A stretch of 64,000 nt of DNA from an uncultured Melioribacteraceae bacterium. Lineage in GTDB: Bacteria > Bacteroidota > Ignavibacteria > Ignavibacteriales > SURF-24. Location of the stretch: the NCBI GenBank assembly GCA_965365345.1, contig CBDUBH010000005.1, forward strand, positions 913 to 64,912, read 5' to 3'. Both the position numbers and the translations under genes were made by a program. This document shows positions 2,848-31,175 of the stretch, in pieces; position 1 is the stretch's first letter, and each line of letters starts with the position of its first letter. Under the pieces are notes generated by a model that searched no databases, was not told the DNA's origin, and worked only from the letters and a program-made list of their open reading frames with translations.

Positions 2848-3578
2848 AGTAGTCTTCTCCTTATGTTTAAAAATAAAAATCGTAAAAATATAACAGAGGC
2901 TAACTCTAAAGGAAGATTAAAGATCCGGGCAATGACGGAGTAACATCGGATTTAATTTTTGAAAATAAAAAATATTTACTCTTAAATAATACATTACTTT
3001 GATATTTATATTCTTTATTTTGTAAAAGAGATAATTTTTAGTTTCCCAAATTTGACAAAAATAAAATAAATTTGCAAGTGAATTCGATTTTTGATCCACA
3101 ATACAGATCAAAATTAAAATTCAAAGCAATCCTTTTACAAGCCGTTACTAAACATTTTAAATTATCTAAATCGCGGCAGAATATAAACCGTGCCCTTTAA
3201 TTCTTCCTATCTAACACAAGTGTTGATCTTAACCAACAACTTTAAAAGCCCCTATCATTAAATATTAATTAAACTTTATGAAATTTCACAACAATTTTTT
3301 GAAATATTTTACAGCAAATTAAAAAGAAATTTCTGTAATTCCCTTTTAATGCTTTTTCCTTATTTACTCATCCCTCAATAATTTTCTATATTCGCAAATT
3401 TAATTGCATAAATTAAGGGTGAAAATTCATTCCCTTTAAATATTTGAGTACGGGCAATTTTCGGAAAGTAAATTTAGGAGTATTTAAATATTCAATTAAA
3501 TTTATAAGGAAAAATTTCAAAACAAAATTTTGTTTTTAAAGAATAGAATTAAAAGACAAAGCAAATACATTTTGAGAA

Positions 3579-4577
3579 TTATTTTTTGCCGGAAAAGAAT
3601 TTTATAATTCCCCAAAATGTTCCAGCAGCGTAGGCAAAGTGCATCAATGAAACAGCAAAAATGAATAAAAATCCTGTGATGAAATTTTTCTTTATTATAA
3701 TTTCAACAGAAAGAAAAATTAAAACCGAAAAGTAAATTGCAGGTAAAAGTAACGCTAAGAATGTTGAACCGCTTAAAAATAACATCATAAAAAAAAGAAA
3801 AATTACACTCAACCAAAAAATTAATGGAACAGCTTTACGGATTGCAACAAAACTTTTCTGCTTTTTTAAAATGGCTCCGCGCCAAAATCCGTAATTAAAA
3901 AATTGTTTGAATAATGAAGCAGGGGTTTCACGCACGTTGTAATCGCATTTTAAATTCGATGAAAGATAAACTTTAAATCCGGATTTATTTAATCTGTGAT
4001 TTAATTCATCATCATGATCATGCACCAAAGATTCATCATACATTCCAATCTGGTCAAAAGTTTCACGTAAAAAAATCGGGAAACATGCGGCTTTTGCGTA
4101 ACCGTCGTAATCAGGGAAACGGTGAATAGCATTTCCGACACCGACCGGATGACTCATCGCCTCAGCAACGGCTTTACCAAAATTTGACTTTCCAATACTT
4201 CTTATCGGCCCGCCAACACAAACAATTTTTTCATTCTTTTGAAAATATATTATTCCATCTTTTATATATTCCGGATGATATTTTGAATGAGCGCCTAAAA
4301 TTGCAACGTATTTCCCTTTTGCATTTTTGATGCCTAAATTCAGAGCCACAGGAGTAATTTTTTTTTCGTTATCAATAATTTTTACGTTAGAATATTTGCC
4401 GGAAAATGATTTTAAAATTTCGCGGGTACCATCATTGCTCATTCCGTCAACAACAATAATTTCAATTGCATCTTTCCCAATTGATTGATTCAGAACAGAA
4501 TTGATACACTCCTCAATGGTTTTAATTTCATTGCGGCAAGGAATAACTACCGAAACTTCCGGGAATAATCCGTTCAA
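3579..4577 (-). CDS. GT2 glycosyltransferase (ExoA-like) with C-terminal membrane helices
   Basis: VSVVIPCRNE, VVDGMSNDGT, ALNLGI, DDELNHRL; hydrophobic C-terminus. Confidence 0.88.
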   Translation of the reverse strand: MNGLFPEVSVVIPCRNEIKTIEECINSVLNQSIGKDAIEIIVVDGMSNDGTREILKSFSGKYSNVKIIDNEKKITPVALNLGIKNAKGKYVAILGAHSKYHPEYIKDGIIYFQKNEKIVCVGGPIRSIGKSNFGKAVAEAMSHPVGVGNAIHRFPDYDGYAKAACFPIFLRETFDQIGMYDESLVHDHDDELNHRLNKSGFKVYLSSNLKCDYNVRETPASLFKQFFNYGFWRGAILKKQKSFVAIRKAVPLIFWLSVIFLFFMMLFLSGSTFLALLLPAIYFSVLIFLSVEIIIKKNFITGFLFIFAVSLMHFAYAAGTFWGIIKFFSGKK

Positions 4578-19946: not shown

Positions 19947-21008
19947 TTACTTTGCGCGAACATATTGATCAGGGAAATCAATTTCTACATTTAAAATTTT
20001 TGCGGCATTAAAGCACCAATAAGGATTTCGCAAAAATTCTCTTGCCATTAAAATCATATCGGCTTTTTCCTCTGAAAGAATTTCTTCGGCTTGAATTGGA
20101 TCAGTTATCATTCCAACAGCGCCGGTTAAAATTCCTGTTTCCTTTTTAATTTTTTCTGCAAATTGAACTTGATAACCGGGCGCGACCGGAATTTTAGCAT
20201 AAGGTAAATTTCCGCCGCTTGAACAATCAATAAGATCAATCCCGATTTCCTTTAATTTTTTTACAAGATAAATTGATTGTTCCAAATTCCATCCGTTTTC
20301 AGCCCAATCTGTTGCAGAAATTCTGACAAACAAAGGGAAATTTTCCGGTATGGAATTTTTAGCAGTTCTTGCAATTTCCAAAGCAAAACGAGTTCTGTTT
20401 TCCAAACTTCCGCCAAATTCATCTTTCCTGAAATTTGAAAAAGGTGATAAAAATTGATGAGCTAAATATCCATGCGCAAAATGAAGTTCAATTATTTCAA
20501 ATCCCGCTTCAACACTTCTAATTGCGGCTTTGCGGAAATTTTCAATTGTAATTTGAATATCTTGATTTGTCATTTCTTTTGGTTCCGGAAAATCTTCTAT
20601 AAATTTTTCCGGACTCGGCGCAATTGTTTGCCAGCCACCATTTTCAATTTTAACTTCGCCTTTACCTTTCCAAGGCGCATATGTTGATGCTTTTCTACCG
20701 GCGTGCGCTAGTTGAATTGCGGGTACGGAATTTTGCTGTTTTATAAATGTGGTAATTTTTTTGAAAGCTTCGGTTTGCTCATCATTCCAAATTCCCAGAT
20801 CATCCGGAGAAATTCTGCCTTCCGGAGAAACTGCCGTTGCTTCAGCTATTATAAGTCCCGCACCGCCAACTGCTCTCGTGCCTAAATGAACCAAATGCCA
20901 ATCATTTGGAACTCCGTTTACAGCGGAATATTGACACATCGGCGAAACTACAATTCTGTTTTTCAATCTTACATTTTTAATTTGAAGCGGAGAAAATAAT
21001 TTGCTCAT
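19947..21008 (-). CDS. namA: Old yellow enzyme NADH:flavin oxidoreductase (YqjM/NamA-like)
   Basis: RIVVSPMCQYS, QLAHAGRKAS, HFAHGYL, PGYQV. Confidence 0.9.
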   Translation of the reverse strand: MSKLFSPLQIKNVRLKNRIVVSPMCQYSAVNGVPNDWHLVHLGTRAVGGAGLIIAEATAVSPEGRISPDDLGIWNDEQTEAFKKITTFIKQQNSVPAIQLAHAGRKASTYAPWKGKGEVKIENGGWQTIAPSPEKFIEDFPEPKEMTNQDIQITIENFRKAAIRSVEAGFEIIELHFAHGYLAHQFLSPFSNFRKDEFGGSLENRTRFALEIARTAKNSIPENFPLFVRISATDWAENGWNLEQSIYLVKKLKEIGIDLIDCSSGGNLPYAKIPVAPGYQVQFAEKIKKETGILTGAVGMITDPIQAEEILSEEKADMILMAREFLRNPYWCFNAAKILNVEIDFPDQYVRAK

Positions 21009-21134: not shown

Positions 21135-22460
21135 TTATTCTTCAACTTCCGAAAGTTTATTTTCTGTTACAACTTCATTTTCCAATTCTTTGGAAATTGA
21201 AATTGCGGCAATTGTTCCATCTGAAACCGCTGTTGTTATTTGTCTGAATTGCTTGCTTGCAACATCTCCGATTGCGTAAACATCCTGAATATTCGTGCGC
21301 ATGTTAGCATCAATTTTTACATAGCCCCAATTATCAAGTTCAAAATAATTTTTAAAATCGTTTATGTTTGGAGTCATGCCCGCAAAAATAAATACGCCGT
21401 CACATTTTAATGATTTATATTCTTTAGTTCTCAGATCTTCAATTATAATTTCATCAACTGATTTTCCGTTCTTTTTAAATTCACGAGGTTCGTGTTCAAA
21501 AATAAAATCGATTTTTGGATTTGCAAAAGCTTTTTCTTGCGCAATTTTATTTGCTTGAAGTTTATCAAACTGATGAACAATTGTAACACGCGAAGCAAAT
21601 TTTGTAATGAACAACGCTTCTTCAATTGCAGAGTTTCCACCTCCGATTACAACAACATGTTTGCCTTCGTAATATTTTGCATCGCAAGTTGCGCAGTAAG
21701 AAATTCCTTGTCCTTTATATTCCTTTTCGCCTTTTACATTAAGCGAGCGCGGCGATGAACCGGTTGCCAAAACAATTTTTTTCGCTCTGATCGTTTCAAC
21801 GCCATCGATTATAATTTCTTTATTTATGAGATCAACTTTTGTTACATCAACTGCCGATCTGAAATCTACTCCCGCCACTTTTGCCTGCTCACTCATGTGA
21901 TGCATTAACATATATCCGTTTATCGGCTCGGAAAACCCCGGATAATTACTTACCAAATGTGTAGTTTTAACTTGTCCACCGGGCAATTCTTTATCAATAA
22001 CAATAGTATTTAATTTTGCCTGAGCAGTGTAAATTGCGGTGGTTAATCCCGCAGGACCGCCGCCTAAAATTAGTACATCGCATTCTGTTTCTACTTTTTC
22101 AATACTTTCTTTTAATTCATTCGCGCGATCAGTTGGAATTAATAATTCCAAATTTTTTACGATATCACTTCTTTTAATTCCGCCGCTTAAAAGATCGCCT
22201 GTAATTTTTCCGTTATCGTAAAACAGCAAAGTCGGTGAAGATGAAACTCCTAATTCCTGTGCTAATTCTCTATTTCCTTGTCTAAAAATCTTAATAAATT
22301 TTACATCTTTTCCATAAATTTTACTCAACGATTCATATTTGCTTGCCAAAGCTTCGCAAGGCGGGCATTCAGTTGAATAAAAATCAACAACAACTTTTCC
22401 GCTATTTAGAACTTCATTTTCAAATTCCGGTGCATTAATTTCTTTAATGAACTCTGCCAT
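21135..22460 (-). CDS. Thioredoxin-thioredoxin reductase fusion (Trx domain N-terminal)
   Basis: N-terminal VVVDFYSTECPPC Trx domain; then GGGPAG, CATCD, GGGNSA, YAIGD, QITTAVSDG TrxB motifs. AGGAG RBS. Confidence 0.93.
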   Translation of the reverse strand: MAEFIKEINAPEFENEVLNSGKVVVDFYSTECPPCEALASKYESLSKIYGKDVKFIKIFRQGNRELAQELGVSSSPTLLFYDNGKITGDLLSGGIKRSDIVKNLELLIPTDRANELKESIEKVETECDVLILGGGPAGLTTAIYTAQAKLNTIVIDKELPGGQVKTTHLVSNYPGFSEPINGYMLMHHMSEQAKVAGVDFRSAVDVTKVDLINKEIIIDGVETIRAKKIVLATGSSPRSLNVKGEKEYKGQGISYCATCDAKYYEGKHVVVIGGGNSAIEEALFITKFASRVTIVHQFDKLQANKIAQEKAFANPKIDFIFEHEPREFKKNGKSVDEIIIEDLRTKEYKSLKCDGVFIFAGMTPNINDFKNYFELDNWGYVKIDANMRTNIQDVYAIGDVASKQFRQITTAVSDGTIAAISISKELENEVVTENKLSEVEE

Positions 22461-22522: not shown

Positions 22523-23827
22523 TTATTCTTTGAAAAAATGTGAAATTCCCATTTCCATTAATTCAGTGATTGGTCTGCAATCCGGTGAGTGCAGTTTTCC
22601 GTTTTTATTGTAAGCTACTTCTGCACAGCCGCCACCACATGCAAGTTGCAGATTACATTCTTTACATTCATTTATCATTGTTACATCACGCTCTTCCCAT
22701 TCTTCAATCGCTTCAAAATTTTTGTGAACTTCCGGGAAAAAAGTACCGAGTGTTCTATCGATTTTCCCGACAGTTGCAGTGCAGGAATAAATATTTCCGG
22801 TATAATCGAAGGCCCATTCAGTTTTACAACCGGTGCAAGCATCAAATAATGGTTTTGGAAGTTCGCCGTTTTCAAATAAAAATTTTGATATTGAAAATGC
22901 CGGTTTGTGAAATTCCAGAATTTCCGGATGCTTTTGAATTTCTTCAAAAATTGATTCGTAAAAATCCAAACGCGTAAAAAGTTTATCATTATCTTTTTGA
23001 CAATAATGAAGCTCGTAATTTCTTCCGAGCTGCGTTTTAAATAAAGGATTTTCTGTCCAGCCTTTTTCAATAGCATATTTTGAAAGTTGATAAAGTCCTT
23101 CAATATTTTCTTTATCAATTACAACTCTCAAATTTATTGTCAAATTATTTTCAAGCGCTGCATCAATCCCTTTTACAATTTTTTCAAATGTCGCCGAATT
23201 ATCTTTTAAATATCTTCTTTTATCATGAAGTTCGGCTGTGCCGTCAAGAGTAACCTGGATTTCTCTGATCTTCACTTTTTTTAGAATTTCAATATATTCT
23301 TCCAAATTAAAACCGTTTGTAACGATCGCAATTTCAAGATTATTTTCATCGCATTTTTGAAGAAAATATTTGATAAATTCTTTATTTTGTTTTCCCGGAA
23401 GTAAAGGTTCGCCGCCGAATAAAGTTATATATTTTCTTCTTCCCGCAAATTCATTTTTAACATATTCAAAAAACGCATCAACAATATTTTTACCGGGAAT
23501 TTTTACTTCATTTTCATAACCTACCTGATAACAATAACTGCAACTGAAATTACACAAATACCAAGGCACAAAGAAAATCTGAACTTCATCATTTTCGCGA
23601 TTTTCAGTAAATTCTAAATATTTTTCTATATAATTTCTTTTTTCATCCTGTTCTTCTGTCAAATAACCTTTTTCAAAATATTCCTGAATATCAGTGAATT
23701 TTCCGTTTTGAATCTCTTCAAATTTTTCTTTTGAAATTATATCAGCATTTCCCGATAAAATATTCACAAGAAAATATTCTTCCGAATTTCTTAGCTTTGA
23801 TAATATGTTATGTTTTGAAAAATACAT
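22523..23827 (-). CDS. Radical SAM/SPASM peptide maturase with probable N-terminal RRE
   Basis: CNFSCSYC, FGGEPLL, TNG, TLDG; SPASM Cys set CTGC...GNIYSC and CKECNLQLACGGGC...C; N-terminal YFLVNILSG...EKGYL resembles an RRE. Confidence 0.93.
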   Translation of the reverse strand: MYFSKHNILSKLRNSEEYFLVNILSGNADIISKEKFEEIQNGKFTDIQEYFEKGYLTEEQDEKRNYIEKYLEFTENRENDEVQIFFVPWYLCNFSCSYCYQVGYENEVKIPGKNIVDAFFEYVKNEFAGRRKYITLFGGEPLLPGKQNKEFIKYFLQKCDENNLEIAIVTNGFNLEEYIEILKKVKIREIQVTLDGTAELHDKRRYLKDNSATFEKIVKGIDAALENNLTINLRVVIDKENIEGLYQLSKYAIEKGWTENPLFKTQLGRNYELHYCQKDNDKLFTRLDFYESIFEEIQKHPEILEFHKPAFSISKFLFENGELPKPLFDACTGCKTEWAFDYTGNIYSCTATVGKIDRTLGTFFPEVHKNFEAIEEWEERDVTMINECKECNLQLACGGGCAEVAYNKNGKLHSPDCRPITELMEMGISHFFKE

Positions 23828-23913
23828 TTTTATTTTCTCTTGATAATGATTTGATGCAGGTAATTTTAATTGGTTTCAAAAAAAATCTTTTAATTCAATA
23901 ATTTATTTCAAAC

Positions 23914-23955
23914 AAAAAAAGCCGTAACGGAAAAATTTTCGCGGTTACGGCTTTT
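23914..23955 (-). terminator. Internal terminator/stabilising hairpin between the precursor peptide and rSAM genes
   Basis: Minus strand reads aaaagccgtaac-15 nt-gttacggc-ttttttt. Confidence 0.75.
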
Positions 23956-23983
23956 GTAAGATCAAACTGATAAAAAGCAGCGT

Positions 23984-24079
23984 TTAGTCGTGGCATCCTG
24001 CAACAACGGCAGAAACTTTTGCACAGCATTGCGCAACTTTCTTATCGGTTTTTTTTCCGTTTTTGATAAGAGTTTTCAT
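23984..24079 (-). CDS. Putative RiPP precursor peptide, 31 aa: MKTLIKNGKKTDKKVAQCCAKVSAVVAGCHD
   Basis: Translated by hand: ATG at 24079, TAA at 23984-23986, AGGAG RBS 6 nt upstream, 14 nt after the arsM stop. Lys-rich leader and Cys-bearing core; directly upstream of the SPASM enzyme. Confidence 0.85.
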   Translation of the reverse strand: MKTLIKNGKKTDKKVAQCCAKVSAVVAGCHD

Positions 24080-24093
24080 CTTATTCTCCTGAT

Positions 24094-24738
24094 TTATTTA
24101 CAACAACATCCGGCAGGTTTTTTCCCCGCCACAGTAAAACTTGAAATTACTATTTTTCCTTTTTCGTACGGAACGCTTTCTTCGATTATTTCGACTGAAT
24201 TAAATCCCGCTAGCGAAATTGTATCAAGATATTTTTCTTTTGTAATTGAACCTGCCCAGCATTCCGAAACTGCTACCGGATCGGTTCTGTATTCTTCAGG
24301 AACATCTTCCAATGAATAAATATCGCTTATTACAAATCTTCCGCCTTTTTTCAAAACTCTGAAAATTTCGGCAAAAACTTTGGCTTTATTTTCAGCGTGA
24401 TTTATAGTGCAATTTGAAATTACCAGATCCGCAATTCCGCTCGGCAAATTTAGTTCTTCCAATTCAGATTTAACAAAATTTACATTTGAAATTCCGAATT
24501 TTTCTGAATTCTTTTTTGCTTTTTCCAGCATTCCGTCAGAAACATCAATGCCGTAAACGAATCCTTTTGTACCAACGGTTTGTGCCATTCTGATAACATC
24601 ATTTCCTCTGCCGCAGCCGAGATCAACGCAAACTTCGCCTTCTGAAACTTTTGAATAATTAATTGCACCGCCGCAAGAAAGACAGCAACTTTCCTCGGCA
24701 AGTTTGGTATAACGGTTATTTATTTCGGTTGTATCCAT
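24094..24738 (-). CDS. arsM: Arsenite S-adenosylmethionine methyltransferase (ArsM/AS3MT)-like protein
   Basis: ESCCLSCGG, SAM motif VDLGCGRGND, ISNCTINH and ECWAG (the two catalytic-Cys motifs of ArsM/AS3MT), C-terminal GCCCK. ATG at 24738 (MDTTE) preferred over TTG at 24834. Confidence 0.8.
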   Translation of the reverse strand: MDTTEINNRYTKLAEESCCLSCGGAINYSKVSEGEVCVDLGCGRGNDVIRMAQTVGTKGFVYGIDVSDGMLEKAKKNSEKFGISNVNFVKSELEELNLPSGIADLVISNCTINHAENKAKVFAEIFRVLKKGGRFVISDIYSLEDVPEEYRTDPVAVSECWAGSITKEKYLDTISLAGFNSVEIIEESVPYEKGKIVISSFTVAGKKPAGCCCK

Positions 24739-24880
24739 TTTTCTCTTTTTTCTTGTGATTAACAATATTTTATGGGCTAAAACAATTTTATAAATTTTAA
24801 CTATTAATAAAGCATAAAAAGATGTTTTTATCAAGTTAAAAAAATTTTTCTTTATTCGAAATATTTTTAGAAGAAGTTTA

Positions 24881-27470: not shown

Positions 27471-29765
27471 TTATTTTGTTTCGGTTGCTGCACCGTCAAT
27501 TTCTTCGGTAACTTCATCAACTTCTTTTTCAATTGACCATCCGGTTTTCAATCCTAAAACAAAATAACCTAATGCTAAAATTCCGGCAGCAAATATTGTA
27601 TCGCCAATTACTCTGAGCCATCTTAAAGTATCAATAAGCGGAGTTTGATTAAATTCTGCTGATCTTGCATACCACATTCCATGTTCAACGCTTGCCCAAG
27701 TTTGAAGTATTCCGACAGGAAGAATACTGATCAATACCATTAAAGATAATCCGATATTTATTGACCAGAATGCAAATGAAACAGCTTTCGTTTTCCAAAC
27801 ATACCTGTTAGTTAATCCTTTTAAGCAGAAAAGCATTAGACCGATTCCAAGCATTCCATAAACTCCGAATAATGCTGTGTGCGCGTGTACGGGAGTGGTT
27901 TCCAATCCTTGCATATAATAAAGTGCGATCGGAGGGTTGATCAAAAATCCAAATAACCCGGCGCCGACCAAATTCCAGAATGCAACAGCAACGAAAAAGT
28001 AGATCGGCCATTTATAAGCAGAAACCCAACTTTTTGCCCGGCTTAAAGTAAGATTTTCATAAGCTTCAAATCCGATTAATACAAGCGGAACCACTTCTAA
28101 TGCACTAAAAGTTGCACCGAGAGCCATTACTGCCGTCGGAGTTCCCGTAAAATACAAGTGATGAAAAGTTCCGATGATTCCGCCGGATAAAAATATTATT
28201 GTTGAAAATAATACTGCATAAGTCGCTGTTGCTACTTGCAACAATCCCATTCTTGTAAATAAAAATGCAATTACAACTGTTGCAAAAACTTCAAAGAAAC
28301 CTTCAACCCAAAGATGGACAACCCACCATCTCCAATATTCAGCAATTGCGTAATTTGTTTGTCTTCCCCACATCAATCCGGCACCGTAAAATAATGCGAT
28401 TGCTACCGATGAGATCAAAAACAAACCGAGAAGATGTCGGTTTTCACCTTTCTTTTTGAAAGCTGGCCACATTGATCTTCCCATTAAAAATAACCAAAGA
28501 AATAGCCCTATTAATAAGAATATCTGCCAGAATCTTCCGAGATCAACATATTCATAACCTTGATGACCAAACCAAAAATTTGAAACAAATCCTAATTTTT
28601 GCTGAACGCCAAGCCATTGACCGAACATTGAACCAACAACAATTATAAGCAGTGCAACGAAAAGAAAATTTACGCCTGCCTTTTGAAATTTTGGTTCATA
28701 GCCGGAAACCGCCGGGGCAATAAATAATCCTGTTGCAAGCCATGCCGTTGCTATCCAAAAGATTCCAAGCTGTGTGTGCCAGGTTCTTGTTACGGAATAT
28801 GGAAACCATTCATCTAATGGAATTCCGTAAAATCCCGAGCCTTCAACACCGTAATGCGCCGTTACTGCACCAAGCAAAACCTGAACTACAATTAATGCAG
28901 CAACAACCCAGAAATATTTTAAAGTCGCTTTCATTGATGGAGTTGGTGAAATTGCCAATAATGGATCCCAGCCCGGGACTTCATAACTATGATCTTCCTT
29001 TTTCCGCAAAACTGCGTAGTACCAAGCCAAGGCTCCTATTCCGGCAAGCAATAAAACAAAACTGATTACTGACCAAACAATGATCTCACCATTCGGTCTG
29101 TTTCCAATCAGATCATCTGCCGGCCAGTTATTTGTGTATGTAATATCTTTTCCAGGACGATTTGTAACACATGACCATGAAGCCCAAAAGAAAAATGCAT
29201 TTATCTTTTCCTGTCTATCATCAGATTTAATTGTGTTTTCCGGAATTGCATATGCTTCGCGAAGTTCCTCCATTGAAGGATCATCGCCGAATAATTTTGC
29301 ATAATAATCACTTAAATAATTATATGCCGCAATTCTATCGGGAGTTAAAGTTAAAGTTTTTGTATCGAAATTAAATGTGTTTTTATGAAGTTCTATTTGA
29401 AGTGATTTTTCTAATGAGGCTTTATCCTCAGGAGGCAAATTTTCATACTCAATGTCGTATTTTTCATTTGCTCTTTTATTCAGAATGAAAAGAGCCTCGC
29501 GGTGAAGCCAATCTGCCGTCCAATCCGGAGCGATATAAGCTCCATGTCCCCAAAGTGTGCCGAGTTCCTGTCCGCCTATTGATTGCCAGACATTTTGTCC
29601 GTCTTTAATATCCTGTCCAGTAAAAATGACTTCGCCGTTTTCACCCACAACTTTCTCGGGAATCGGCGGGGCCTCCCTGTAAATCTCAAATCCGTAATAT
29701 CCCAATACACCAAAAGAAAATATCATTACGAGCGCTAATCCGATCCACAGTTTTTTATAGTTCAT
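27471..29765 (-). CDS. norZ: Quinol-dependent nitric oxide reductase (qNor, single large subunit)
   Basis: GHGAYIAPDWTADWLHRE, WWVVHLWVEGFFEVF, GTFHHLY, HAHTALFGVYG. ATG at 29765 has a GGAG RBS. Confidence 0.95.
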   Translation of the reverse strand: MNYKKLWIGLALVMIFSFGVLGYYGFEIYREAPPIPEKVVGENGEVIFTGQDIKDGQNVWQSIGGQELGTLWGHGAYIAPDWTADWLHREALFILNKRANEKYDIEYENLPPEDKASLEKSLQIELHKNTFNFDTKTLTLTPDRIAAYNYLSDYYAKLFGDDPSMEELREAYAIPENTIKSDDRQEKINAFFFWASWSCVTNRPGKDITYTNNWPADDLIGNRPNGEIIVWSVISFVLLLAGIGALAWYYAVLRKKEDHSYEVPGWDPLLAISPTPSMKATLKYFWVVAALIVVQVLLGAVTAHYGVEGSGFYGIPLDEWFPYSVTRTWHTQLGIFWIATAWLATGLFIAPAVSGYEPKFQKAGVNFLFVALLIIVVGSMFGQWLGVQQKLGFVSNFWFGHQGYEYVDLGRFWQIFLLIGLFLWLFLMGRSMWPAFKKKGENRHLLGLFLISSVAIALFYGAGLMWGRQTNYAIAEYWRWWVVHLWVEGFFEVFATVVIAFLFTRMGLLQVATATYAVLFSTIIFLSGGIIGTFHHLYFTGTPTAVMALGATFSALEVVPLVLIGFEAYENLTLSRAKSWVSAYKWPIYFFVAVAFWNLVGAGLFGFLINPPIALYYMQGLETTPVHAHTALFGVYGMLGIGLMLFCLKGLTNRYVWKTKAVSFAFWSINIGLSLMVLISILPVGILQTWASVEHGMWYARSAEFNQTPLIDTLRWLRVIGDTIFAAGILALGYFVLGLKTGWSIEKEVDEVTEEIDGAATETK

Positions 29766-29870
29766 TTTGACTCCAATATTTGATGAAAACAATTTTGATG
29801 AATTGAATAATGAATCTTATCTTATCTAAACAAGATATCTGGTATTATAAAGTCACAATTTTCTCCCCCC

Positions 29871-30395
29871 TTAAACTTTGTAGAAATAAATTTTCCACAT
29901 ATCATCTAATGATTCCGAAAAATGCTTTATTCCTTTTTTTGATAGCGCATTATATAAAGGAAACGGCTCAAAAAAATTTACCATTTTAATTGCGTTGAAT
30001 TCATTTAATTTTGCAAGAGCATCTTTGATTTTTACGATCGGGTCAATTCCGTTTAAAATATCTTCTCTTACATCAATTTCTATAATATTTTCTTCATTAA
30101 TATTTAATAGAAATTCTGGTTTTTTGATATTTGGATTTTTATTTGGAAGTTCAAGATCTTCTTCATGAGAAAGATTTCCTGTTTCCCCTACGGAAATTTT
30201 TATATAATTCAGAAGATCCGAAACAGCAATATTTTCAATGTTGGCGGCATCTTTTAAAGTCGTGCGTTTACCGATATTATTTATAATAAATTCTTTTTGA
30301 ATGGAGCTTAATTTCGGACTTATGGATTTTATAAGATCAATAAAAAGCGGATTTTGTTTTGCCAGATCCGAGATTTTAACTTCTTCTGTTATCAT
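29871..30395 (-). CDS. DUF1858/DUF2249-like protein
   Basis: N-terminal TTLKDAA helical domain; C-terminal IDVREDILNGIDP...FEPFPLY...WKIYF; lies between ric and qNor. Confidence 0.7.
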   Translation of the reverse strand: MITEEVKISDLAKQNPLFIDLIKSISPKLSSIQKEFIINNIGKRTTLKDAANIENIAVSDLLNYIKISVGETGNLSHEEDLELPNKNPNIKKPEFLLNINEENIIEIDVREDILNGIDPIVKIKDALAKLNEFNAIKMVNFFEPFPLYNALSKKGIKHFSESLDDMWKIYFYKV

Positions 30396-30422
30396 TTGTA
30401 TTAATTCGCTTTCTGAAAAACC

Positions 30423-30445
30423 GGCTCCGGTTAAATTCCGGAGCC
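30423..30445. other. Intergenic GC-rich hairpin after ric
   Basis: ggctccgg-ttaaatt-ccggagcc with no strong U tract. Confidence 0.5.
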
Positions 30446-30452
30446 AAATATT

Positions 30453-31175
30453 TTAATTTTTTCTTAAATCATTTTCCATTTGAATTGCTTTTGGGAACAA
30501 GATCGAATTTTCAAGAAAAACATGTTTGTGAAGGTCTTTTTCAAATTCATCTAATTCTTTATAAGTTACGGCAAAAGTTGTGCATGCGCCTTGCGGTAAA
30601 GTGAAATTGCTTGTTAAAGTTCTGATTTTTTCAAGAGCATCTCCTGCACTGTCATGCTCTCTTTCCATTACCTCAATAGGATTTTTCACTGAAAAATTTC
30701 CGAATGAACTTAAATCTTCCCCGCTTCTTTTTGCCTGAATCATTTTGTTAATTGCAGGGAATAAAATATTTTCTTCTTTTTGCATGTGACTGAAAAGTTC
30801 AGCTTTTACTTTATCAAATAGATAAGCGACTTCCTGCACGAAAGGATGATTTGCGGAATGTGCGTTCACAACTCTTTGTAAATGTTCCGTAATAACAGGA
30901 ATTGATCTTAAAACATATTTATGATGATTATTAACAATATGCATTATCAAATAATCCAATTCCCATTCATCATATCTGTTGCTATCGCCGCCGGGCAATT
31001 TTGCTGCTTCTTTTAATTCGCTCAAAATTTGATCTACATTAATATTTTTTTCCGCGCAAGCCTGATTTAGCGGTCTGTTACCTTTACAGCAAAAATCAAT
31101 TCCGTATTTTTCAAAAACTTCTGCTGATCTGAAATTCTCTGCAACCAAATCTTTAATTATTACATCTGCGTTCAT
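30453..31175 (-). CDS. ric: Iron-sulfur cluster repair di-iron protein (Ric/YtfE/ScdA)
   Basis: GIDFCCKG, HHKY, HMQKEENILFP, MEREHD, HVFLENSILFP. Confidence 0.96.
   Translation of the reverse strand: MNADVIIKDLVAENFRSAEVFEKYGIDFCCKGNRPLNQACAEKNINVDQILSELKEAAKLPGGDSNRYDEWELDYLIMHIVNNHHKYVLRSIPVITEHLQRVVNAHSANHPFVQEVAYLFDKVKAELFSHMQKEENILFPAINKMIQAKRSGEDLSSFGNFSVKNPIEVMEREHDSAGDALEKIRTLTSNFTLPQGACTTFAVTYKELDEFEKDLHKHVFLENSILFPKAIQMENDLRKN

Follow-up and report, generated by a model that had tools for sequence, protein, structure and literature searches.

A conserved short peptide with three cysteines as the candidate substrate of a radical SAM/SPASM enzyme encoded beside an ArsM-like methyltransferase

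We analysed a window of 64,000 nucleotides of DNA from an uncultured Melioribacteraceae bacterium (contig CBDUBH010000005.1, positions 913 to 64,912), in which a frame of 31 codons, lying on the minus strand between the genes of an ArsM-like methyltransferase and of a radical S-adenosylmethionine (SAM)/SPASM enzyme, is a real gene under strong purifying selection. The reading that we favour, with a probability of about 70%, is that the encoded peptide is a substrate of the type of the peptides that are made by ribosomes and modified after translation (RiPPs), that it is modified at its cysteines by the adjacent radical SAM enzyme, and that it probably works inside the cell together with the ArsM-type enzyme and a thioredoxin/thioredoxin-reductase fusion. 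Judged from sequence, the peptide appears to found a so far undescribed family, as does its putative maturase, Pfam and NCBIfam 20.0 holding no model of either, and what would be new is a family of precursor and maturase whose tie to an ArsM-type enzyme and a fusion of thioredoxin and thioredoxin reductase is unusual and constant. The features of this cassette in the window are:

24094..24741, minus strand: ArsM-like SAM methyltransferase, 215 residues, with a Cys-rich tail (AGCCCK); 191.5 bits against NF008823, cut-off 263
24086..24090, minus strand: AGGAG ribosome-binding site, 6 nucleotides 5' of the ATG of the peptide gene
23984..24079, minus strand: peptide gene, stop included, with a recognition-like start (MKTLIK), a Lys-rich linker and the invariant core AQCCAKVSAVVAGCHD
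about 23910..23955, minus strand: hairpin and U-tract, a terminator or attenuator between the peptide and radical SAM genes; -20.3 kcal/mol
22523..23827, minus strand: radical SAM/SPASM peptide maturase (putative), 434 residues, with an N-terminal domain (three strands, three helices), a CX3CX2C motif and the full SPASM cysteine set
21135..22460, minus strand: thioredoxin/thioredoxin-reductase fusion, 441 residues; TIGR01292 at 331.5 bits (residues 128-426) and Pfam Thioredoxin (residues 6-104)

The peptide frame runs from an ATG at 24079-24077 to a TAA at 23986-23984 and encodes MKTLIKNGKKTDKKVAQCCAKVSAVVAGCHD, with cysteines at positions 18, 19 and 29 and a C-terminal GCHD. An initial annotation, made from the letters of the window, had described a frame of 31 residues with these three cysteines and this ending, preceded by an AGGAG ribosome-binding site and placed between arsM and radical SAM homologs. 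Translation of the frame bore this out, the AGGAG is present at 24090-24086, and the placement was correct, the ArsM-like gene being located 5' and the radical SAM/SPASM gene 3' on the same strand. The frame begins 14 nucleotides after the stop of the methyltransferase gene (24094), and the order on the minus strand is ArsM-like gene, peptide, hairpin, radical SAM/SPASM gene, thioredoxin/thioredoxin-reductase fusion and an old-yellow-enzyme gene. A GGAG or AGGAG was found at the same spot in all 11 relatives' loci examined, in front of ATG or GTG starts. Gene lists that use a length cut-off miss this gene, which encodes the putative key substrate of the cassette.

The peptide gave no Pfam or NCBIfam 20.0 match at E <= 0.01, which agrees with the statement of the initial annotation that it resembles none of the SCIFF, subtilosin, mycofactocin and PqqA precursors. 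A feature search of the ESM Atlas with the peptide returned only clusters of "hypothetical protein" at 0.86-0.87, under the level of 0.9, which makes them a lead only, and a scan for sigma-70 promoters was uninformative (22 sites versus 17.1 +/- 3.8 expected). Searches of the literature yielded no paper on the AQCCAK or CCAKVS motifs, which supplementary tables and subscription journals could still mention, and "GCHD" was met only as unrelated abbreviations. No paper was found either on a cassette of a radical SAM/SPASM enzyme, ArsM and a thioredoxin reductase, supplements being outside the search, and the accessible part of a preprint on selenoproteins (10.1101/2022.07.06.499078) does not treat this system.

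We compared 92 orthologous loci, 12 from related genomes (window included) and 80 from a collection of species genomes, out of 100 loci fetched overall; the 80 are the best 80 of 493 relatives of the radical SAM enzyme in a scan of one genome per species, and all counts out of 80 refer to them. Orthologues of the radical SAM enzyme with 58-67% identity were found in 11 of 60 related genomes. The initial annotation had staked its proposal on the conservation of a small open reading frame (ORF) at this position, and a C-terminal AQCCAK-x6-GCHD followed by a stop is present just 5' of the radical SAM orthologues in 87 of the 100 fetched loci. Among the 12 orthologous loci from related genomes, 11 carry the core motif and stop; 10 of the 11 relatives' loci have a frame of 31-32 codons at the same place, directly upstream of the radical SAM gene and with the same last 16 residues, and in the eleventh relative (G017) the peptide frame is located on another contig, directly after the copy of the methyltransferase gene in that genome. 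In the species collection the motif and stop lie just upstream of the radical SAM gene in 76 of 80 loci. Two of the four misses (L024 and L034) have no upstream DNA and a third (L041) has only 126 nucleotides of it, so that the only true miss is L072, with 4 kb of upstream DNA lacking the motif.

The 87 loci comprise 77 distinct DNA sequences of the core, in which 11 residues are invariant while all of the synonymous codons are used at the invariant positions (four for Ala, four for Gly, and both TCN and AGY for Ser). The codon entropy of the core was 1.37 bits at third positions versus 0.28 and 0.35 bits at the first two, and the ratio of nonsynonymous to synonymous polymorphism (pN/pS) was 0.135, with the synonymous sites saturated. 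Searching 1.84 billion cluster representatives with a profile built from ten peptides yielded 104 matches at E <= 1e-3, of which 8 were at E <= 1e-10; nearly all were of 30-62 residues and one was of 243. Since these matches are among cluster representatives, gene callers do predict the peptide in many assemblies. In one locus (L075) two copies of the peptide gene (3-98 and 3486-3596) differ by one core residue (ISRTIA versus ISKTIA), and another contig of the same assembly (L076) bears a further copy of the radical SAM gene together with its peptide.

The anatomy of the family was read from 60 of the 104 profile matches and from the copies in the loci, and three parts were recognized: a start of the form MKSLIxK (M-K/R-S/T-L-I/V/T-x-K), a linker, roughly 7 to 30 residues long, that is rich in Lys, Pro, Ala and Thr and has no conserved sequence, and an invariant end of 16 residues, A-Q-C-C-A-K-x-S-x4-G-C-H-D, with the rare variants GCHN, GCRD and CCSK. 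In an alignment of 41 sequences M1, A16, C18, C19, K21, G28, C29 and H30 were invariant, and K2, L4, Q17, A20, S23 and D31 were conserved at 90% or more. All of the 60 matches read except that of 243 residues end in the core or a near variant of it, one with two extra residues. The division into leader and core drawn by the initial annotation, which had taken the Lys-rich first half as the leader, held in outline and is refined here: the leader element is only the MKSLIxK start, the Lys-rich stretch is a variable linker, and the core is the last 16 residues. A second CC pair is located inside the linker (…CCAP… or …CCGAG…) in P0032, P0080, P0091, P0096, P0100, P0101 and L071:267-389. The match of 243 residues (P0031) consists of four tandem repeats of about 60 residues, three of which have the core-like VATCC(V)KTPT(V/M)SSGCRD and the fourth of which is degenerate; this match may be a relative with several cores, or else a repeat in the DNA that has been translated.

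The radical SAM/SPASM enzyme has its CX3CX2C motif at C92, C96 and C99, and these residues, those of the SPASM set (C331, C334, C349, C388, C391, C397, C401 and C417) and C276 were invariant in 25 sequences. Its best matches in NCBIfam are to maturases of Cys-rich peptides, all far under their cut-offs, with 161.5 bits for CefB (NF038107, cut-off 600), 133.2 bits for TIGR04463 (cut-off 525), 119.6 bits for Clo7bot, 117.6 bits for PapB (NF047865, cut-off 340) and 82 bits for the SCIFF maturase (TIGR03974, cut-off 425). The sole sequence relative in the PDB at E <= 1e-5 was CteB (5wgg, E 3.4e-12). In the AlphaFold2 model, which had a predicted local distance difference test (pLDDT) score of 84.9, residues 7-79 form three strands followed by three helices, and the best fold match was again CteB, with a template modelling (TM) score of 0.66 over 473 columns and over the full length, N-terminal domain included. 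The next fold matches were anSME, SuiB, ChlB and TigE, with PqqE at rank 42.

We then predicted the complex of the radical SAM enzyme (alignment of 25 rows) with the peptide (alignment of 41 rows) in three runs and with three controls, using a score mark that is reached by 58 of 80 solved complexes and by 2 of 110 mismatched pairs. The three runs scored 0.82, 0.82 and 0.83, while the best of the three controls scored 0.00; the runs shared at least 50% of their contacts and the pLDDT of the partner was 46-48. The confident contacts joined peptide residues 1-6 and 8-10 to residues 19-20, 26-31, 35, 49, 53, 317-323, 428 and 432 of the enzyme, among which 27-31 are the third strand of its N-terminal domain in the AlphaFold2 model. 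These models support binding of the N-terminus of the peptide to the N-terminal domain of the putative maturase. Binding of the leader as a strand is the mode of CteB and of other maturases that bear a RiPP recognition element (RRE).

The paralogue of the radical SAM enzyme nearest to it in the relatives (31% identity, E 2.1e-48) is encoded on the minus strand in L013 (G030:C1). About 150 nucleotides past it lies a frame of 61 residues, in which an acidic leader that resembles a helix (…LSVEELEERLELAEAA…) is combined with a core holding five cysteines; the frame resembles that of a classical RiPP precursor rich in cysteine, from a different family.

The peptide profile matched 12 of the 61 related genomes, and these are exactly the 12 that have an orthologue of the radical SAM enzyme, the other 49 having neither; as these genomes are kin, this co-occurrence is not a statistical test. 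Together with the conservation of the loci and the complex model, it supports the suggestion of the initial annotation that the small peptide is a precursor for the radical SAM enzyme encoded beside arsM. In an even sample of the phylum the peptide was found in 3 of 301 genomes. No selenocysteine form of the peptide was seen, the read-through matches in the 301 and 61 genomes having no internal stops, and no further search for such forms was made. According to the record titles the carriers belong to at least six phyla, comprising Ignavibacteriota, Bacteroidales and other Bacteroidota, Spirochaetota (Leptospirales and Brevinematales among them), Elusimicrobia, Latescibacterota and Chitinivibrionales; the name Bacillota, met in a few titles, may be a binning label. 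One carrier (L045) has a record titled as an isolate, Pleomorphochaeta sp. DL1XJH-081. Such a range, patchy within the phylum yet extending across several phyla, is as expected if the cassette is accessory and can be transferred. By the same titles, sediments, groundwater and digesters are the sources of most of the carrier genomes.

Comparison with known systems showed the closest likeness to SCIFF of Clostridium thermocellum (CteA/CteB; PDB 5wgg and 5why), in which a short Cys-containing precursor is likewise encoded beside an enzyme of three domains, namely an N-terminal recognition domain, a radical SAM barrel and a SPASM domain with auxiliary clusters. SCIFF also has a highly conserved peptide and no dedicated exporter or peptidase. 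The system of the window differs from it in that the peptide has no TIGR03973 match (E <= 0.01) and three cysteines rather than six, that the enzyme reaches 82 bits against the 425 of TIGR03974, that the partners are an ArsM-type methyltransferase and a thioredoxin/thioredoxin-reductase fusion, and that the cassette is found in Ignavibacteria, Bacteroidales, spirochaetes and other hosts rather than in clostridia. Among named families the enzyme scored best with CefA/CefB and TIGR04463 ("rSAM versus C-rich"), the names of which mark both as maturases paired with Cys-rich peptides, and its residues 1-434, its whole length, aligned with positions 1-433 of the 444 in the CefB profile. The window peptide has no cysteine at every fifth residue as in CefA, and the scores are far below the cut-off. 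We know of no tested chemistry for either the CefB or the TIGR04463 family. PapB, the maturase of the ranthipeptide freyrasin, is a radical SAM/SPASM enzyme that links a Cys sulfur to the side-chain carbon of an Asp, and its substrates carry repeated Cys-X3-Asp motifs. By analogy a link between Cys29 and Asp31 is conceivable in the window peptide, which, unlike those substrates, has a single C-X-D at its very C-terminus, the enzyme moreover being below the PapB cut-off.

The mechanism that we propose under the favoured reading would begin with the MKSLIxK start acting as a minimal leader, which would dock as a strand on the N-terminal domain of the radical SAM enzyme, a domain resembling those that recognize leaders. 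The linker would be a tether that lets the invariant core reach the active site, where one or more of Cys18, Cys19 and Cys29 would be turned into intramolecular thioether cross-links. Thioether formation is the most likely reaction because of the analogy with CteB, the nearest solved relative, and with PapB. The initial annotation had put forward two possible uses of the three thiols, trigonal coordination of As(III) or the supply of up to three thioether donors. The product would probably not be a secreted bacteriocin and would stay in the cell with the methyltransferase and the thioredoxin/thioredoxin-reductase fusion; this role is suggested because the core is invariant, no genes for export or cleavage are conserved, and the partners are constant.

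A precursor of a secreted bacteriocin of the sactipeptide or ranthipeptide type would also be a short Cys-containing peptide encoded beside a CteB-like maturase, and a cluster of CLI3235 bacteriocin precursors was met in the ESM Atlas at rank 15 with a score of 0.81, below the level that counts. We nevertheless consider such a function highly unlikely. No recurring cluster of peptidases, exporters or immunity proteins was found among the ORFs of at least 90 residues within about 4 kb on each side in the 80 loci, so that genes for transport, leader cleavage or immunity are not among the conserved ones. The conserved partners are an arsenic-type methyltransferase and a disulfide reductase, and the core does not vary across the six or more phyla, which makes it unlike an antibiotic core, as these diverge.

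The invariant C-terminus and the variable part upstream of it would also suit the precursor of a peptide-derived cofactor. Mycofactocin (MftA/MftC) and pyrroloquinoline quinone (PQQ; PqqA/PqqE) are made from small precursors with an invariant functional end or core residues, which are modified by radical SAM/SPASM enzymes and act inside the cell with oxidoreductases. On this model the modified C-terminus of the window peptide would be cut free and would serve the methyltransferase or the thioredoxin/thioredoxin-reductase fusion in redox or methyl transfer, and the presence of a radical SAM/SPASM enzyme and of conserved oxidoreductase partners without an exporter is consistent with it. We regard it as doubtful and decidedly improbable, since no peptidase is conserved in the loci, we know of nothing that would need such a cofactor, and the patchy range (3 of 301 genomes) suits an accessory function more than that of a core cofactor. 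The system differs from those of mycofactocin and PQQ also in having no matches above the cut-offs, no separate PqqD-like protein and different residues.

Several observations weigh against modification by the radical SAM enzyme, or weaken what we have drawn on for it. The enzyme is under the cut-off of every named NCBIfam family, so that no reaction can be transferred to it with confidence, and Pfam gave no PqqD or RRE domain at E <= 0.01, for which reason its recognition domain rests on the predicted fold. In the predicted complexes the core of the peptide (residues 11-31) is not confidently placed, the pLDDT of the partner being below 50, and the pass of the score mark may reflect likeness to complexes of leaders and maturases that are already solved (CteB and SuiB). 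The loci used for the codon statistics were picked by the motif itself, which gives a bias that is not zero; it is small, since the motif is present in 87 of the 92 and three of the five misses have little or no upstream DNA. Two runs labelled "metatranscriptomic", which are probably DNA, gave no contig at 80% likeness over 23693-24160, a result with no bearing on expression; these runs contain 5-6% of the words, and their contigs, which overlie parts of the radical SAM and methyltransferase genes, come from relatives and are mostly less than 90% alike. Lastly, the pair of methyltransferase and peptide genes was found intact apart from the radical SAM gene in two loci, on another contig in G017 and divergently in L012. 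The tightest linkage of the peptide is thus to the methyltransferase, and a methyltransferase partner would also fit.

Such a partner is what would be expected if the peptide were not a substrate of the radical SAM enzyme at all, this enzyme having another task, and were instead a thiol carrier or chaperone for the ArsM-like methyltransferase. Its cysteines, perhaps with His30 and Asp31, would then bind As(III) or another soft metalloid and pass it to the methyltransferase, the peptide would replace glutathione in anaerobes that lack it, and the thioredoxin/thioredoxin-reductase fusion would recycle its disulfides. The order of methyltransferase then peptide was constant in every locus that holds both genes, even where they are unlinked from the radical SAM gene, and the invariant residues of the peptide are classical ligand residues. 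The ArsD chaperone binds As(III) by a vicinal Cys pair and a third Cys, a site that the window peptide resembles, and ArsM uses thiol-bound As(III) and thioredoxin. ArsD, however, has no sequence relation to the window peptide.

The methyltransferase itself is below the cut-off of all ArsM models, the others being further below than NF008823. Its best PDB matches were arsenic methyltransferases, over residues 70-250 of those chains only, and it has 215 residues against 377-383 for the solved arsenic enzymes. Its residues C23, C111 and C161 align with residues 72, 174 and 224 of 4fr0_A/4kw7_A, which we take to be the As(III) ligands of the solved enzyme, and are kept in 71, 73 and 73 of 73 methyltransferase sequences, respectively. 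More widely, Cys19, 20, 23, 38, 111 and 161 are kept in 70-73 of the 73 family members, and in 59 of the 73 the C-terminal tail has from two up to four or more cysteines. The conservation of the ArsM cysteines and the Cys-rich tail are as a carrier for this enzyme would have them. Together with the residues of ligand type in the peptide core, they suggest that the likely field of action of the system is the chemistry of thiols or soft metalloids. The mechanical ORF of the methyltransferase begins at a TTG (24834), 31 codons before the ATG at 24741 where all orthologues begin (MDT…), and the extension 24742-24834 is probably not translated.

The methyltransferase gene was found in 72 of 80 loci and the gene of the thioredoxin/thioredoxin-reductase fusion in 74 of 80, in a gene order that varies, the fusion being located before the methyltransferase gene or after the other three genes. 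Recurring extras in the 80 loci were DUF6132 (17), a MarR-like regulator (16), DUF302 (14), DUF1847 (13) and an ArsR-type regulator (4). The ArsR-type regulators beside 4 of the 80 loci would suit an arsenic chaperone, whereas 16 loci have a MarR-like regulator instead and no classical ars cluster (arsC, acr3, arsA, arsD) was seen among the conserved neighbours of the 80 loci. The complex model, moreover, docks the conserved N-terminus of the peptide on the radical SAM enzyme, a free chelator would need no conserved MKSLIxK, and the co-occurrence of peptide and enzyme is perfect in the 61 genomes. We therefore judge an unmodified chaperone to be fairly improbable, while noting that carriage and modification are compatible if it is the peptide in its modified form that acts as carrier.

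Modification by the radical SAM enzyme could be joined to such a function in one scheme, which is tentative and rather unlikely. In it the enzyme would lock the Cys, His and Asp residues of the core into a fixed chelate, or would bond a carbon of the core to the metalloid; the product would carry As(III), Sb, Se or Te to the truncated ArsM-type enzyme, the Cys tail of which would take it over, and the thioredoxin/thioredoxin-reductase fusion would reset the thiols. If true, this would be the first RiPP dedicated to the methylation or detoxification of metalloids, and a stand-in for glutathione in the anaerobes of several phyla.

ArsM-type methyltransferase genes are also paired with radical SAM genes in the systems for arsenosugars (ArsS) and for arsinothricin (ArsL; preprint 10.1101/2024.02.01.577332). 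The cassette of the window is unlike both in that its radical SAM enzyme is of the SPASM peptide-maturase type and has a recognition-like domain, neither family being among the best 25 of its 74 NCBIfam matches, and in that it has a ribosomal peptide part. With the models of the arsenosugar and arsinothricin ArsM its methyltransferase reached 72.9 bits (cut-off 400) and 112.4 bits (cut-off 500), respectively.

A radical SAM/SPASM enzyme encoded with a small Cys-rich peptide is a known kind of system, some members of which, such as SCIFF, are not secreted. The present family is tied across at least six phyla to two enzymes of readable chemistry, and this association with a methyltransferase and a self-contained disulfide reductase would give an experimental handle on the purpose of an intracellular peptide of the thioether type. 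It may also bear on how arsenic or another soft metalloid is presented for methylation in anaerobes free of glutathione, which would be relevant to the cycling of arsenic in habitats such as sediments, groundwater and digesters. At the least it is a well-defined family of precursor and maturase absent from the Pfam and NCBIfam 20.0 models.

The hairpin located 3' of the peptide gene had an energy z of -3.1 against shuffled sequences. Hairpins of -7 kcal/mol or lower followed directly by at least four T were found in 34 of 87 loci versus 1 of 261 shuffled controls; their sequences vary from locus to locus, and they occur mainly in Ignavibacteria-type loci and are missing from most Bacteroidales and spirochaete loci. 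A separate scan for terminators had overlooked the hairpin of the window owing to the loop limit of that scan. In the window the peptide gene is presumably read together with the methyltransferase gene, and the hairpin past it would then keep the peptide message above that of the maturase. Many RiPP operons yield more message for the peptide than for the maturase.

A hairpin and U-tract after a small ORF, in the window as in those 34 loci, would also be found if translation of the Cys-rich frame controlled the hairpin, and hence the radical SAM and thioredoxin-reductase genes, the peptide itself being functionless. We give such a regulatory leader ORF hardly any credence. By the same test 53 of the 87 loci lack the hairpin, the peptide ORF is not 5' of the radical SAM gene in G017 and L012, and selection at the protein level acts on the whole C-terminus of 16 residues across phyla, far beyond what an attenuator needs.

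Some of the other genes near the cassette were considered as partners and rejected. In the window these were the old-yellow-enzyme gene (19947-21008), a TonB-type receptor and a nitric-oxide reductase, each found in 0 of 80 loci, and a histidine kinase, found in 5 of 80. Going by where their representatives lie, we took clusters 3, 4, 6, 7, 8, 11 and 14-17 of neighbouring ORFs for shadow ORFs: they are contained in conserved genes, on the strand opposite to these or, in the case of cluster 7, in a different frame.

A further, free-standing thioredoxin of 152 residues (PF00085, 89 bits) is encoded between the methyltransferase and peptide genes of about 15 Bacteroidales loci (e.g. L074:3423-3881). 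Its N-terminal segment is hydrophobic and resembles a signal or lipoprotein sequence; a location of this thioredoxin outside the cytoplasm would be hard to square with a product that is purely intracellular. The DUF6132 gene, the product of which has a GCxSGxC motif, stands before the methyltransferase gene in 17 of 80 loci. In the window the cassette is neighboured by a nitric-oxide stress group (27471-31175, minus strand), which comprises a quinol-type nitric-oxide reductase of 773 residues (a NorB cytochrome-c-like domain and COX1), a DUF1858-like protein below the Pfam cut-off, and a di-iron repair protein with ScdA_N and hemerythrin domains.

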